Source: Acidimicrobiia bacterium
GTDB lineage: Bacteria > Actinomycetota > Acidimicrobiia > Acidimicrobiales > JANYDT01
Reading direction: 5' to 3'
Assembly: GCA_043718695.1 (NCBI GenBank)
Contig: JAYSVF010000080.1
Coordinates: 1-24,000, forward strand
Length of the DNA: 24,000 bases
Under the pieces are notes generated by a model. It was not told the origin of the DNA. It searched no databases and saw only the letters and a list, made by a program, of their open reading frames with translations. The position numbers and the translations under genes were made by a program. Below are positions 1,971 to 7,440 of this stretch, piece by piece (within the stretch, counting starts at the first letter, position 1; every line of letters starts with the position of its first letter).

Positions 1971-2407
1971 AATCCACCAACAAATTCACCTTCTACGAGC
2001 CCGATCTCGACGGTTCTCTCCCCCGCCACTTCCTCCGTTCTGCTCTTTTCATTTGCCTTCTCCCCGGACGTTCCCACGGCTACGAACTCCTAGAGCAGGT
2101 CAGACTTTTCGGCCTCTCCACCGCGGATCTCGCCGGCGTGTATCGAGCCATGAAGTCGATGGAACATGATGGTCTCGTCAATTCCGAATGGGAGAAGTCT
2201 GGGCTCGGACCACCGCGACGCATTTACGAGTTGACTCCATTAGGCCTGATCGCTGCTGACAAGCACCGTAACGCCCTCCGAACGGCTCGCGATCACCTTG
2301 ACTTGATGATCAGATCCGTTTCGCCTCTTCCCGTTGACCACAGGTTCCAACACGGACTACGTAGCGCTTCGGTTGGGCCACGGCCTTCGAGTCAAAAGAC
2401 CTCATGA
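1967..2407 (+). CDS. PadR-family transcriptional regulator
   Basis: From the internal ATG at 1967 (ATGA overlap with the previous stop). GYELLEQV...LAGVYRAMKSMEHDGLVNSEWEKSGLGPPRRIYELTPLG is the classic PadR wHTH signature. The longer 1847 start was rejected (Arg/Ser-rich, overlaps the upstream gene). Confidence 0.85.
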   Translation: MKSTNKFTFYEPDLDGSLPRHFLRSALFICLLPGRSHGYELLEQVRLFGLSTADLAGVYRAMKSMEHDGLVNSEWEKSGLGPPRRIYELTPLGLIAADKHRNALRTARDHLDLMIRSVSPLPVDHRFQHGLRSASVGPRPSSQKTS

Positions 2408-3183
2408 GAATCGCCATTGCTGGTAAAGGGGGCGCAGGCAAGACCACCTTCTCCGCTACCACTGCTCGCCTACTCGCTCGGCAGGGAATGAACGTCGTCG
2501 CAATCGATGCCGATACCAATCCCAACCTAGCCGCCGCGATGGGTTTCGACCTCGCCGCAGTCTCCAACGTAGCCATACTTCCCACCAACATCGTGTCACG
2601 TCGTCTCGACGGTTCCGCAGCGCTGCGCCTGCCACTCGATGAGGTTCTCGACGGCCATGCAGTTCGTGGGCCAGATGGAGTTCGTCTCGTTCGCATGGGA
2701 ATGCCCGACCACGCCCAAGAAGGTTGCCTTTGTTCGGCCCATGCCGCCGGATCAGCTCTACTCGCCGACCTTGGTTCGCAATCTGAAACCTGGACAATCA
2801 TGGACTTAGAAGCATCGCCCGAACACTTAAGTCGTGGCACTGCACGCCATGCCGACGCACTGATCCTTGTGGCCGAGCCGTATTTCCGATCCCTTGAAGC
2901 TGTGCGACTCCAGGCGCGCCTGGCGGCAGAACTCCCAAACGTAGTTGTTGGAGCGGTGGCCAATAAACTCCGATCGCCCGAAGATGCACAAGCCGTCCGC
3001 GAGTTTGTTGACAGTATTGGAATTCCCCTCTGGGGTGAGGTTCCCTGGTCCGATGACATTACCAACGCCGATCGCCTCCGAATGTCACTGATCGATGCCG
3101 CGCCGGCCAGCCCAGCAGTTACGGGCATGCGGAACACGTTACGTACACTTATGGCACTGAAAGCATCACGAGTATGTGTGTAG
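2404..3183 (+). CDS. CooC-type (MinD/ParA-fold) nickel-insertion accessory ATPase
   Basis: Deviant Walker A motif MRIAIAGKGGAGKTT. The EGCLCSAH motif corresponds to the CooC C-x-C metal site, and DLEASPEHLSRGT to CooC DMEAGIEHFGRGT. ATGA overlap with PadR. Confidence 0.85.
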   Translation: MRIAIAGKGGAGKTTFSATTARLLARQGMNVVAIDADTNPNLAAAMGFDLAAVSNVAILPTNIVSRRLDGSAALRLPLDEVLDGHAVRGPDGVRLVRMGMPDHAQEGCLCSAHAAGSALLADLGSQSETWTIMDLEASPEHLSRGTARHADALILVAEPYFRSLEAVRLQARLAAELPNVVVGAVANKLRSPEDAQAVREFVDSIGIPLWGEVPWSDDITNADRLRMSLIDAAPASPAVTGMRNTLRTLMALKASRVCV

Positions 3184-3473
3184 GAGTTCCCGCTAGAGTA
3201 ATCGGTCCGGTCGACATGACCACCCACGAGGCCATGGTCGAGTGCAATGGAGTCCGCCGCAGCGTCAACGTTTCCTTAGTCGTCGAAACCGATGGCACAG
3301 GACTCAACCTCGGAGACTGGGTTCTTTTGCACGTCGGTTTTGCCATGAGCATTCTCGACGAAGACGAGGCACGTCGCACCTTGGAGTTACTCACCCTCCT
3401 TGGCGGCGACAATGAAGACTTCGAAGCTTTCGCCGCATCGGCCGAATCTCTTAACGCCTCCGTAGAACCATGA
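3174..3473 (+). CDS. hypC: Hydrogenase maturation chaperone HypC/HupF
   Basis: N-terminal MCVGVP and GDWVLLHVGFAMSILDEDEA are HypC hallmarks. Overlaps the CooC gene by 10 nt. Confidence 0.9.
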   Translation: MCVGVPARVIGPVDMTTHEAMVECNGVRRSVNVSLVVETDGTGLNLGDWVLLHVGFAMSILDEDEARRTLELLTLLGGDNEDFEAFAASAESLNASVEP

Positions 3474-4165
3474 CCGTGATCGACCCCTGCGGTTCGTTGG
3501 CGGTCGTTGCGCGTCACCTTTCCAATCGCATCGCGCAGGGGTCCACCCTCTGGGCGGTTGCACCCGAATTGGACGACCATGCACACCACCTCGCCGTGGA
3601 GTTCGTTCACCCAGCTTCGGTGGGAGCGATGGCTGTACCGGCAGTGGCTGTCTGCGGTGAGGCAGACCGAATGCTCGAAAAGCTCCGAGCGCAAGTCCGC
3701 ACCGGCGACGTCATCGTCTCGATGGGATACACCGACACATTCATTGTCGAGCTGTCCAATCGTGCCGTGGCGTGGGGAGCCGATCACGTTCACCTTGGAT
3801 GGGGGCAGGACCCAATCGCCAGTCCTCTTGACCCTCGGTCATTCTGTGTTCAACTCGGCACCGACGGGTCTAGCGAACGGTACCTCACCCGTTCGTACCA
3901 TTTGCTATGGGAACTTACATGCATTTGTCTTCAGAATCGAAAGTTGACAAGTGCACCTCACGACGATGTTCTCGTCACTACCAGCTGTTCGGTGTGCGCC
4001 GATGAAGCGACCACAACGGAAGTGACGGAAGTACTGACGAACGATAGAGCGCGAGTTCGGACAGCCTGCGGTCCGGAAGTCATTGATATCAGCCTCCTCG
4101 ACAATGTTCGACAACATGATCTCGTACTGGTACATGCTGGAATCGCCCTTCGAAGGTTGTCGTGA
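3470..4165 (+). CDS. Fusion protein: degenerate SIS (GmhA-like) domain plus C-terminal HypC-like OB domain
   Basis: The N-terminal ~160 aa follows the GmhA/SIS layout (HHLAVEFVHP ~ QHFAAELVGRF; HLLWELTCICL ~ HLLILHCLCELI) but lacks the GNGGS loop. The C-terminal 57 aa, VCADEATTTEVTEVLTNDRARVRTACGPEVIDISLLDNVRQHDLVLVHAGIAL, resembles HypC (..A.V...G....V.L.L....D.VLVH.G.A.). ATGA overlap with hypC. Confidence 0.7.
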   Translation: MTVIDPCGSLAVVARHLSNRIAQGSTLWAVAPELDDHAHHLAVEFVHPASVGAMAVPAVAVCGEADRMLEKLRAQVRTGDVIVSMGYTDTFIVELSNRAVAWGADHVHLGWGQDPIASPLDPRSFCVQLGTDGSSERYLTRSYHLLWELTCICLQNRKLTSAPHDDVLVTTSCSVCADEATTTEVTEVLTNDRARVRTACGPEVIDISLLDNVRQHDLVLVHAGIALRRLS

Positions 4166-4166
4166 C

Positions 4167-4916
4167 ATGGCTACGAGCAACTCCGTGAACGGACCGAGCT
4201 TCTTATACCCTTTCCTAGACGCAATGCCATTAGATGAAGCGCAAACGCCACAACATTCCGCGGACAAATCGACAAAGCACCCGACTGAAACCCTTTTCAG
4301 CAATAGCGAGCTCGAGGAATTGGCTGCAGCCGCTCGCGTCAGCTGGACTACCGGCGAGGAGTTAGACAAGGAAACGGTTATCGCAAATGAACTACTGATT
4401 GACGAAGCAGCACGGTTGATCGTCGAGAGCACGCTTGGGTTTGGTCGGGTGTTCGTAATTGGCAATGGAGGAAGTGCCTGCGATGCCCAACGATTCGTGC
4501 GCTTGCTACAACCCTCAGTCGCGGTATCGTCGTTGATGGATTCGGTGGTCATCACCGCGCTCGCAAATGATGTCGGCGCCGACCGTATCTTCGATCGCCA
4601 AATCGAAACCTTTGCAAAGTCTCAGGATGTTGTCGTGGCATTCAGCACGAGCGGCACATCCACAAATGTTCTCAGCGCACTTGCACGAGCGAGGCGAAAG
4701 GGAGCATTTACCATCGTCTTTGCTGGCTACGGGGGTGCGGCACTTACCAACAATCCCGATGTAGATGTTTGCCTCGCCGTGGACTCATCGAGCGTTCACC
4801 GCATCCAAGAAGCCCAGGGTGCCCTTACGTTGACACTCGCCGATCGGGTTGGTATGCATCTAGAGGTACGGCGCGGCACTACAACGGACGAATCAGCTAG
4901 GACCGCTACGCCATGA
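4167..4916 (+). CDS. SIS-domain protein (phosphoheptose-isomerase/GmhA-like) with an N-terminal ~70-aa extension
   Basis: From the ATG 1 nt after the previous stop. VFVIGNGGSACDAQRF, ALANDVGADRIFDRQIE, VVVAFSTSGTSTNVLSAL and SVHRIQEAQ match SIS/GmhA motifs. Confidence 0.8.
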   Translation: MATSNSVNGPSFLYPFLDAMPLDEAQTPQHSADKSTKHPTETLFSNSELEELAAAARVSWTTGEELDKETVIANELLIDEAARLIVESTLGFGRVFVIGNGGSACDAQRFVRLLQPSVAVSSLMDSVVITALANDVGADRIFDRQIETFAKSQDVVVAFSTSGTSTNVLSALARARRKGAFTIVFAGYGGAALTNNPDVDVCLAVDSSSVHRIQEAQGALTLTLADRVGMHLEVRRGTTTDESARTATP

Positions 4917-6037
4917 AGTTCGTTGACGAATACCGCGATCCACAAACCGCCAAGCTTGCACTCAAACAAATTGAATCATTGGCAGGAGATCAACCGCTGA
5001 AATTTATGGAAGTCTGTGGCGGACACACGCACACGATTTACCGTCATGGGATCGAGCAGATTCTTCCGCCGAATATTGAGCTCGTCCACGGTCCGGGCTG
5101 CCCGGTGTGCGTGATCCCCATGGGTCGAGTTGATGATGCGATTGCCGTGGCGCAAACCCCTGGGGTGATCTTCACAACCTTCGGCGACATGCTCCGCGTA
5201 CCGGGATCAACCTCAACGCTATTAGAGGCGAAGGCCCGTGGGGCCGATGTCCGTATGGTCTACTCGCCCCTCGACGCACTTGAGTTGGCCCGACGAAACC
5301 CTGATAGCCAAGTCGTTTTCTTTGCTGTCGGCTTCGAGACCACAGCGCCCTCCACGGCAATCACTCTTCGCCAGGCCAAACGTGACGGCGTCAGCAATTT
5401 TTCGGTGTTCTGCAACCACGTCACCATCGTTCCCCCGTTGTTAGCCATCCTCGATAGTCCCGGCCTCGAACTCCACGGATTCCTTGGGCCCGGGCACGTG
5501 GCCACCGTCGTCGGCCTGCGTCCATTTCAATTCGTAAGCGAACGTTACAACAAGCCGATCGTGGTGGCAGGCTTCGAACCACTTGACATACTCCAAGGTG
5601 TGTCCATGCTCCTGCAGCAGCGGGACCAGGGCCGCTGCGAAGTGCAAAACCAATACGGTCGGGCCGTTCCACCTTCTGGCAACCCCCGAGCCCTTGAGGT
5701 TATGGCTGAGGTTTTTGAACTTCGTCCACATTTCGAATGGCGCGGGCTGGGTTTCATCCCGCAATCCGGACTCCGACTTAATCCAACGTACGCAGATTAT
5801 GACACCGAACAACGCTTCACGGTTCCTGGTGTGCGTATTGCCGACCCGAAAGCGTGCCAGTGCGGCGAAGTGTTAAAGGGAGCGATTCGGCCTTGGGAAT
5901 GCAAGGTGTTCGGAACAGCGTGCACCCCACAAACACCGATCGGTACGTGCATGGTTTCGTCAGAGGGTGCATGCGCCGCGTTCTACAACTACGGTCGACT
6001 CTCCCAGCGCCGCAACATTGCGGTCCGTTCCGCATGA
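4913..6037 (+). CDS. hypD: Hydrogenase maturation protein HypD
   Basis: Motifs MKFVDEYRD, CGGHTHTIYRHG, GPGCPVCV, VGFETT, and the C-terminal GTCMVSSEGACAA cysteine motif. Confidence 0.95.
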   Translation: MKFVDEYRDPQTAKLALKQIESLAGDQPLKFMEVCGGHTHTIYRHGIEQILPPNIELVHGPGCPVCVIPMGRVDDAIAVAQTPGVIFTTFGDMLRVPGSTSTLLEAKARGADVRMVYSPLDALELARRNPDSQVVFFAVGFETTAPSTAITLRQAKRDGVSNFSVFCNHVTIVPPLLAILDSPGLELHGFLGPGHVATVVGLRPFQFVSERYNKPIVVAGFEPLDILQGVSMLLQQRDQGRCEVQNQYGRAVPPSGNPRALEVMAEVFELRPHFEWRGLGFIPQSGLRLNPTYADYDTEQRFTVPGVRIADPKACQCGEVLKGAIRPWECKVFGTACTPQTPIGTCMVSSEGACAAFYNYGRLSQRRNIAVRSA

Positions 6038-7164: not shown

Positions 7165-7440
7165 GTGGCAGGAACCGTATGGAGACTTAGGACCTCCGAG
7201 CTCGAGGCGCATCTTGAACAGCATGGATGGTGCGTCACAGCGATTCGTTCCCGACGTGAAGAGATGCTGGCTTATCATGCTGCTCGCCGCGATTTTCTTC
7301 GTGAGGCCGAAGAATTGCTGGTGACCGAGCTGCCCAAGGAAGGCGTCGATCGCCTCGTGGGCCGGGCCGCAACTGTGGCCGCACTCCTTGAAGAACAGCG
7401 ACTCGATATGGTCTTCATCACCGCAGTACGTCGGGGCTGA
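7165..7440 (+). CDS. Hypothetical 91-aa helical protein (GTG start, weak support)
   Basis: Open frame with plausible composition after hypE, but no recognisable SD or family. Ends 6 nt from the convergent permease stop. Confidence 0.35.
   Translation: MAGTVWRLRTSELEAHLEQHGWCVTAIRSRREEMLAYHAARRDFLREAEELLVTELPKEGVDRLVGRAATVAALLEEQRLDMVFITAVRRG

Follow-up and report, generated by a model that had tools for sequence, protein, structure and literature searches.

We analysed the first 24 kb of contig JAYSVF010000080.1 (24,000 nucleotides, hereafter the window) from an Acidimicrobiia bacterium (GenBank assembly GCA_043718695.1), a fragmented metagenome-assembled genome (MAG) of 398 contigs that is about 80% complete. 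Between the hydrogenase maturation genes hypC and hypD, the window carries two adjoining open reading frames (ORFs), ORF-A and ORF-B. Both have the fold of the sedoheptulose 7-phosphate (S7P) isomerase GmhA, and each retains a different half of the residues that make up the GmhA active site. Our analysis indicates that they probably constitute an obligate GmhA-derived heteromer with one composite metal- and phospho-ligand-binding site per pair, equipped with a HypC-like tether and acting as an accessory to the maturation of group 1h/2a [NiFe] hydrogenases. A previous reading, made from the sequence alone, had described ORF-A as a degenerate SIS domain fused to a HypC-like module, ORF-B as an intact canonical SIS protein, and the pair as the mark of an uncharacterised step in cofactor assembly. 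The last of these proposals is probably right; the division of roles between the two proteins is not the one that had been imagined.

The fusion in ORF-A is real. The AlphaFold2 model, built from a 37-sequence alignment, displays two domains (pLDDT 89.3, pTM 0.87) and is poor only in the linker (residues 164-170). Using Foldseek, the N-terminal domain of this model was matched to GmhA/DiaA structures (3bjz_C, E 1.2e-7, TM-score 0.69 on the target) and its tail to the HypC of the HypCDE complex (3vyt_A, TM-score 0.92, root-mean-square deviation 1.2 Å over 53 columns). A profile search of PDB sequences with ORF-A recovers the same two families, the best sequence-profile match of the N-terminal domain being DiaA, the DnaA initiator-associating protein (E 6e-4), and hhalign aligns the C-terminal domain with HypC (probability 97.3, E 2.5e-11). 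Hence the C-terminal segment is an OB fold and, as the sequence-only reading had it, a second HypC-like unit directly follows the true hypC. Family models see it faintly. The sole Pfam match of ORF-A is HupF_HypC on residues 183-230, at 25.5 bits on the whole protein for a cut-off of 28.5; the module alone (residues 175-231) reaches 29.4 bits with PF01455 (29.2 in a genome-wide scan; cut-off 28.5), and TIGR00074 gives 16-19.5 bits against a cut-off of 48. Nothing in Pfam or NCBIfam matches the N-terminal 170 residues. In a profile scan of the whole 80%-complete genome, the only HypC-type modules found are hypC and the tail of ORF-A.

Gene pairing was surveyed over 80 fetched genome loci, and residues and codons were counted over 79 of them. 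In the N-terminal domain of ORF-A, the position of the GNGGS phosphosugar loop reads A-P-E-(gap)-L when aligned by hhalign with the ORF-B family, and there is no STSG loop either, so the absence of the first loop had been rightly noticed. Among the residues that are invariant in ORF-A (79/79) are His37, His40, Glu44, His47, Pro48, Tyr143, His144, Trp147, Glu148, Cys173, Cys176, and Asp178. In the HypC-like domain, the conservation of His222-Ala-Gly, whose counterpart in HypC is 'HvGFAm', reaches at least 95%, and Glu184 is also conserved. ORF-A has no conserved Gln. Where the HypC-like domain is present, the median identity to the window ORF-A is 44% for this domain versus 36% for the SIS-like domain, and 0% for the linker. 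Some less degenerate relatives read "GNG..TDAxH-I-A-V-E-F-V-H-P" and "K-E-G-H-x-x-x-Y-H", sequences that bridge ORF-A to ordinary GmhA.

ORF-B presents the converse picture. Its match to SIS_2 (PF13580) scores 54 bits and those to the GmhA models 87-94 bits, for equivalog cut-offs of 209-276 bits; with TIGR00441, to which ORF-A has no match, it scores 87.1-87.8 bits and does not reach the cut-off of 209.45. Aligned to solved GmhA, it reads GNGGS-A-x-D-A-Q-R where GmhA has D-A-Q-H (His64, Burkholderia pseudomallei numbering), it has no equivalent of Glu68, and R-I-Q-E replaces the K-I-Q175-E of GmhA ('KIQE' of 2x3y). These are properties of the whole family. Indeed, among 79 ORF-B orthologues, the His64 position is occupied by T, S, A, or R and never by His, the Glu68 position by Leu, and the His183 position by Y, F, H, or L. 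Invariant or nearly so in the same orthologues are FLYPF, GNGGS, Asp106, N-D, R-Q, STSGxS, His211, Arg212, Gln214, and Glu215. ORF-B is thus GmhA-like, as had been said, and yet it is not a canonical GmhA, since it lacks the His/Glu/His set and lies far below the family cut-offs.

The two halves fit each other. The N-terminal domain of ORF-A and the ORF-B family are recognised by hhalign as related (probability 96.3, E 1.6e-9), and on this sequence evidence we take them to be paralogues. In that alignment, His40, Glu44, and His144 of ORF-A are set against positions 109, 113, and 222 of ORF-B, which are GmhA His64, Glu68, and His183 in the ORF-B/GmhA alignments, and His37 of ORF-A falls at the Asp61 position. 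From the four-residue set His64, Glu68, Gln175, and His183 of GmhA, ORF-A has the His/Glu/His and ORF-B only the Gln, so that neither protein is complete; conversely, the GNGGS and STSxxS loops are in ORF-B only (79/79), on another chain than the His/Glu/His residues. In GmhA, these four residues are the Zn ligands; all are conserved and mutating each lowers the activity (PMC5705639). The GmhA site is built from the alpha2 and alpha6 helices of two subunits, with the Glu on alpha2, the His on alpha6, and the Gln on the alpha6' of the partner (PMC4697000). In a model of Mycobacterium tuberculosis GmhA, Asn53 and Gly55 of the GNGGS loop, Ser121-Ser126, and Gln173, which hold the substrate, are supplied by one monomer, and the other provides Glu66 (PMC7705670). 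ORF-B retains the substrate-loop and Gln residues and ORF-A the His/Glu/His residues, which is the same split as that between the two protomers of GmhA. Since the two residue sets belong to different protomers, an A:B pair would rebuild one full site, located, as in GmhA, between two protomers. GmhA, a homotetramer, has four complete sites, whereas ORF-A and ORF-B hold half a site each and only a heteromer of the two could have one site per pair. The loss of the reciprocal site in such a pair agrees with the half-of-sites reactivity of GmhA, where, of two paired sites, a single one is active at any moment (PMC5705639). The earlier idea of a catalytically dead SIS protein next to a live one does not hold: ORF-B lacks His/Glu/His precisely where ORF-A is invariant, and each is a half site.

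The fold itself is common to ORF-A, ORF-B, and the solved GmhA proteins (TIGR00441, EC 5.3.1.28; B. pseudomallei 2X3Y/2XBL, Escherichia coli 2I22, Neisseria gonorrhoeae 5I01). ORF-B shares with them GNGGS, Asp61, N-D, R-Q, STSGxS, and Gln175, and ORF-A shares His64, Glu68, and His183. The pair differs from GmhA in its extra invariant His, Glu, and Arg residues, its N-terminal FLYPF extension, its scores far under the family cut-offs, and its location in hydrogenase maturation operons, GmhA being an enzyme of heptose pathways. Database names, such as 'D-sedoheptulose 7-phosphate isomerase' and 'HupF', would rather give the two genes unrelated jobs, ORF-B being an ordinary GmhA for envelope heptose and ORF-A a HupF-type chaperone with a vestigial SIS domain. 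Moreover, the 80%-complete genome contains no GmhA above the family cut-off, ORF-B being the only GmhA-like gene found in it. We nevertheless consider this very improbable: ORF-B scores 87.8 bits for a cut-off of 209 and lacks His64, Glu68, and His183, GmhA E-to-Q mutants are inactive (PMC4697000), the supposedly vestigial domain of ORF-A contains at least 20 invariant residues, and the two genes, which sit in hyp clusters, invariably occur side by side, coupled, or fused.

This pairing is strict. In all of the 80 fetched loci, the A homologue is directly followed by the B homologue, beside hypE, hypC, or hypD. The stop codon of A and the start codon of B overlap by 4 bases in 43/79 loci, by 1 base in 12, and by 8 in 5. 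In the window, ORF-A is open throughout, its ATG shares an ATGA with the hypC stop (3470-3473), the most likely start of ORF-B is the ATG at 4167, 1 base past the ORF-A stop, and the ORF-B stop shares another ATGA with the hypD start (4913-4916). The family is large: ORF-A has 101 homologues, mostly full-length (230-250 amino acids, aa), a few of which are named "HupF" or "HypC/HybG/HupF family" in databases, and its profile, run against 1.84 billion representatives, detects 673 clusters at E<=1e-10. Relatives are encoded by more than 400 stretches of species-representative genomes, those of Mycobacterium, Rhodococcus, Prescottella, Pseudonocardia, Sphaerisporangium, and numerous Acidimicrobiia among them. 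The pair, in short, looks like an ordinary representative of an accessory family that is widespread yet unstudied. In a MAG of 398 contigs, and with several database relatives ending in frameshift-type garbage tails, one might have feared that ORF-A is two genes joined by an assembly or frameshift error. Isolate genomes (Mycobacterium, Rhodococcus, Pseudonocardia, Prescottella) and hundreds of clusters share this 230-250-aa architecture, however, and its C-terminal domain is conserved as well as its N-terminal one. Homologues in isolate genomes, together with the 80/80 loci that keep the pair, refute the artefact and leave it next to no probability.

Natural fusions support a physical association of A and B. 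Among 247 collected relatives, about 176 have the A-type SIS domain followed by the HypC-like module, about 9 have A-type SIS, HypC-like module, and B in one chain, and about 12 have A-type SIS and B without the module. A search with one A-B fusion returned 2280 proteins at E<=1e-20, and tandem forms of 340-450 aa are numerous in this set. Three A-B fusions lie in loci syntenic with the window, where they occupy the slot between hypC and hypD; the gene order there is a divergent hhyS, small ORFs, a winged-helix gene, PadR, the CooC-like ATPase, hypC, the fusion, and hypD, with hypE in 2 of the 3. A six-frame scan of two of these loci revealed no HypC-type module besides the true HypC. In the 341-aa fusions, the A half lacks the central beta-alpha units, and H..H...E..H-P and Y-H-x-L-W-E remain invariant beside an intact B half. 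From these HypC-less and minimal fusions, we conclude that the selected core is made of the His/Glu helices of A and the pocket of B, the HypC-like domain being a frequent but dispensable tether. A view of the HypC-like module as the centre of the system is not supported: in close relatives whose operon is laid out alike, the module has been lost and the two SIS halves are fused instead. The structure of a natural A-B fusion, modelled from an alignment of 64 natural fusions, has a pLDDT of 88.4 and a pTM of 0.90; its B half is 30-35% identical to GmhA and matches it at TM-scores up to 0.87. As a two-SIS chain, the fusion loosely resembles the tandem-SIS isomerase domain of GlmS (7DNR, TMq 0.60), in which a single site lies between the SIS halves. 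GlmS nonetheless belongs to another SIS subclass, with 11-13% identity, another chemistry, and no HypC-like insert.

Some material was set aside during this survey. A joint MAFFT alignment of A, B, and fusion sequences was discarded because it placed the A sequences on the B half, A and B being paralogues. Proteins made of the A domain only were not counted as a split architecture: 4 of the 6 inspected (221-264 aa) carry Arg-rich tails, which in P0130, P0132, P0136, and P0140 are nonsense sequences following the CxxC or the YHLLWEL helix. Frameshift errors in high-GC metagenome contigs typically leave such tails, and architecture counts made on databases need a filter against them; many of the shorter A-domain-only proteins are suspected to be fragments. 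Three of the sampled genomes (G021, G059, and G173) give separate, adjoining matches to the SIS half of A type, to the HypC-like module, and to the B half, so that the system seems to exist there fully split into three genes.

The strict conservation of the two half sites also bears on whether the pair is an enzyme at all. DiaA provides a precedent for the reuse of a GmhA fold in protein binding, its partner being DnaA, and the A/B hetero-oligomer could likewise be a non-catalytic scaffold which only multimerises or positions the HypC-like chaperone or the large subunit, its His, Glu, and Cys holding a structural metal. We regard this as unlikely, though worth keeping in mind, DiaA figuring with the best matches of the ORF-A N-terminal domain in fold as in sequence, neither protein alone having a full GmhA site, and the A half being able to lose its central beta-alpha units. 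Against it, the substrate-contacting loops of ORF-B and the catalytic residues of ORF-A are strictly invariant over 79 loci and 64 fusions, which is hard to explain without ligand binding, and the SIS pair persists where the HypC-like module is lost and hence is not a mere holder for it. DiaA itself forms a homotetramer, has retained a GNGTS loop but not the catalytic Glu, and is unconnected with hydrogenases.

The HypC-like module shares with the HypC/HybG/HupF/HoxL family (PF01455), the Fe(CN)2CO-handling chaperones, the OB fold and the L-V-H-x-G-x-A motif, and its gene adjoins hypC and hypD. HypC is a free protein of 70-100 aa whose essential N-terminal Cys (Cys2) pairs with Cys41 of HypD (PMC12134894). 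The module of ORF-A is, by contrast, internal, with C-x-x-C-x-D at this place; its Cys173 and Cys176 lie at least 172 residues from the N-terminus, so that it does not have the N-terminal Met1-Cys2 of HypC. The counterpart of Cys2 differs with the alignment, being Asp178 according to Pfam, residue 175 in the local hhalign alignment, and Cys173 in the global one. Unlike HypC family members, the module is absent in some close relatives, and where the speciality of HupF is a C-terminal extension, ORF-A has an N-terminal enzyme-like domain instead. The sequence-only reading had hesitated between an internal domain and a mini-HypC of 57 aa, separately translated from the GTG at 3992 and starting Met-Cys. 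The in-frame GTG-TGC that inspired the second idea is present (3992-3997, codons 175-176), and the 57-aa piece alone exceeds the Pfam cut-off. The codon before Cys176 is however a Thr codon (ACC/ACG/ACA/ACT) in 73/79 loci and GTG in 2/79, the window included, and no purine-rich ribosome-binding sequence precedes 3992. A start at this place would moreover drop the invariant Cys173, three residues upstream of Cys176, and the domain is in frame with the SIS half in about 170 clusters and stands between the two SIS halves in the triple fusions. The internal domain is thus retained, and the mini-HypC is hardly credible.

Put together, these data suggest how the composite A:B site could work. ORF-A and ORF-B would be diverged copies of a GmhA-type isomerase that function only jointly, in a hetero-oligomer (A2B2, if the GmhA tetramer is a guide), each A:B pair restoring one of the two paired active sites of GmhA. 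ORF-B would give the substrate and phosphate loops (GNGGS, STSGxS, N-D, and R-Q) and Gln214, and ORF-A the metal-binding and catalytic His40, Glu44, and His144, along with His37, His47, and Glu148, which are invariant and specific to the family; in both proteins, the reciprocal site would have decayed. Such a site would bind a metal and bind, or isomerise, a phosphorylated sugar-like ligand. The HypC-like domain, on its floppy linker, most likely either docks onto HypC, HypD, HypE, or the large subunit or holds a metal itself, and the complex would be an accessory maturation factor for the oxygen-insensitive [NiFe] hydrogenases of groups 1h/2a, with a presumed link to Fe(CN)2CO assembly. Several points weigh against this proposal. 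The heteromer and its composite site are deduced from sequences and fusions; the invariant residues that GmhA does not have (His37, His47, and Glu148 in A; His211, Arg212, and FLYPF in B) suggest a ligand or metal other than S7P and Zn; and the HypC-like module is absent from close relatives, so that models relying on it are not general. On the literature side, the assignment of residues to subunits in M. tuberculosis GmhA comes from a homology model and not from a crystal structure (PMC7705670), the searched literature yields no experimental datum for any member of the family, and a 2025 review of the maturation scheme (HypA-F and ancillary factors) names only HoxL/V, HupF/K, and HypX as ancillary factors, with neither the SIS pair nor any sugar-isomerase-like protein (PMC12134894).

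The pair is located with a particular type of hydrogenase. We sampled 201 genomes of the same phylum, in which kin are not independent and the counts are thus descriptive. An A-type match was found in 31/201. Among the 30 A-positive genomes other than the source genome, 28 have a NiFe large subunit, and in about 23 of the 30, according to our reading of the match tables, it lies on the same contig within about 20 kb. All the same-contig large subunits listed are of the low-scoring, roughly 600-aa (1h/2a-like) type. Reciprocally, most sampled genomes carrying a 1h/2a-type large subunit have the A/B pair with it, and 76/170 A-negative genomes, by subtraction from the tallies, have other hydrogenase types. 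In the source genome, the C-terminal part of the large subunit was found on a different contig; its nearest relative is HofG of the actinobacterial-type hydrogenase of Ralstonia eutropha (5AA5), with 212 bits versus 62 bits to Huc, which places the locus in group 1h (Hhy-type). Among named genomes, the locus has its nearest relatives in Acidimicrobiia MAGs. The sequence-only reading had stated that SIS genes accompany some actinobacterial hydrogenase clusters with no assigned function, and this statement was accurate: "gmhA" is mentioned in group 1h/2a hydrogenase loci (PMC11879354, PMC5900883), a gmhA-named protein rises along with Hyp proteins in Acidithiobacillus (PMC11879354, PMC5900883, PMC7735108), and a neighbourhood survey lists a SIS cluster among hydrogenase-linked genes (PMC12727194). 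These are annotation-level mentions, and in the searched literature we found neither a function for the hydrogenase-linked "gmhA" nor an account of the split site. Other oxygen-tolerant hydrogenases likewise have extra, lineage-specific maturation genes, HoxV/HupK with HoxL/HupF and HypX, one partner being HypC-like; HoxV/HupK (large-subunit-like) and HypX (formyltransferase and crotonase) have no sequence or fold relation with the SIS pair.

What such a site could produce is a more distant question. The source of CO in anaerobes has been called the most pressing open question of the field, and aerobic CO synthesis is attributed to HypX (PMC12134894). It is conceivable, although we hold it for quite improbable, that the A:B pair is a metalloenzyme whose substrate is a phosphorylated sugar, or a related aldehyde-forming metabolite, and whose product is the precursor for one of the diatomic ligands in Fe(CN)2CO, CO being the most attractive; this precursor would be handed to iron on the CxxC or on HypC/HypD. 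Bacteria that breathe air and oxidise atmospheric H2 would then have a route to the CO ligand that does not depend on HypX. A search for Formyl_trans_N in five complete genomes with the pair, a sample too small to argue from, revealed no clear formyltransferase of HypX length and one ambiguous 734-aa frame.

The group 1h/2a hydrogenases of soil bacteria (Hhy, Huc), which are assembled in air, are the main biological sink for atmospheric hydrogen according to the literature. In the pair, conservation of the active-site residues is as tight as in an enzyme. If the pair is required, it adds a step to the assembly of the [NiFe] cofactor and becomes relevant to the heterologous production of oxygen-insensitive hydrogenases. 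Moreover, it would neatly illustrate the resolution, through duplication, of a homo-oligomeric half-of-sites enzyme into a heteromer that is obligate and has a single site for each pair.

The coordinates of the genes and motifs are collected in the table below.

Table. Genes, domains, and motifs of the hypC-hypD region (window coordinates)
Feature	Position	Strand	Basis
CooC/ParA-like P-loop ATPase	2404-3183	+	Pfam
bona fide hypC, 99 aa, begins M-C	3174..3473	+	PF01455 76.7 bits, TIGR00074 72.9 bits
ORF-A, GmhA-derived SIS-like domain and HypC-like OB domain, 231 aa	3470..4165	+	
ORF-A N-terminal domain, residues 1-160, GmhA/DiaA-type SIS fold without phosphate loops	3470..3949	+	Foldseek, hhalign
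ORF-A helix H37-A-x-H40-x-A-V-E44-F-V-H47-P48	3578..3613	+	invariant 79/79
ORF-A helix Y143-H144-L-L-W147-E148	3896..3913	+	invariant; register by hhalign
ORF-A linker, residues 161-172, unconserved, low model confidence	3950..3985	+	pLDDT ~51, median identity 0%
ORF-A HypC-like OB module, residues 173-231, L-V-H222-A-G motif	3986..4162	+	3vyt_A, hhalign, PF01455
ORF-A C173-x-x-C176-x-D178, at the place of the HypC N-terminal Met-Cys; includes GTG 3992-3994	3986..4003	+	79/79
ORF-B, GmhA-like SIS protein without His/Glu/His, 249 aa	4167..4916	+	
ORF-B F-L-Y-P-F motif of the N-terminal extension; also the joint of natural A-B fusions	4200..4214	+	invariant
ORF-B GNGGS loop, substrate-binding in GmhA (PMC7705670)	4461..4475	+	79/79
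ORF-B S-T-S-G-T-S phosphate loop (role: PMC7705670)	4644..4661	+	S160, T161, S162, G163, S165 at least 95%
ORF-B H211-R-I-Q214-E215; Gln214 is the GmhA Gln175 counterpart	4797..4811	+	invariant
hypD	4913..6037	+	PF01924 518.8 bits

On the + strand, the genes are tightly packed in the order CooC/ParA-like P-loop ATPase, hypC, ORF-A, ORF-B, hypD, and hypE. The gene for the [NiFe] small subunit is divergent from the hyp genes and runs off the end of the contig. The contig that carries the large-subunit C-terminus (L081, contig C199, 1-2017) ends this protein with ...SFDPCMPCTTH followed by a 20-residue extension; a gene for a weak HycI-like protease (21.9 bits, cut-off 23) and then a NifU-domain gene come after it. 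The presence of this C-terminus on L081 means that the hydrogenase operon is split across at least two contigs of the MAG.

The true HypC has an acidic tail of about 30 residues (window 3372-3470, ...RRTLELLTLLGGDNEDFEAFAAS...). The conserved C-terminal tail, ELLTLLGGDNEDFEAF, is near-identical in the HypC of two syntenic loci (L083 and L084), and it might be a docking peptide for the adjoining SIS proteins or for HypD. Just after hypE, a 91-aa ORF (7165-7440) has no Pfam match. The CooC/ParA-type ATPase overlaps the hypC start by 10 bases, at the place where hypB might be expected. Homologues of this ATPase (52-84% identity) lie directly upstream of hypC in 14/80 related loci, mostly of Acidimicrobiia or unclassified Actinomycetota MAGs, and none was found at that position in the Mycobacterium-type loci among these 80. 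Between the small membrane-protein genes and the ATPase are found an ORF with no Pfam match (1527-1970) and a PadR-family regulator (1988-2407), and the same two genes precede hypC in three related loci (L083, L084, and L085).

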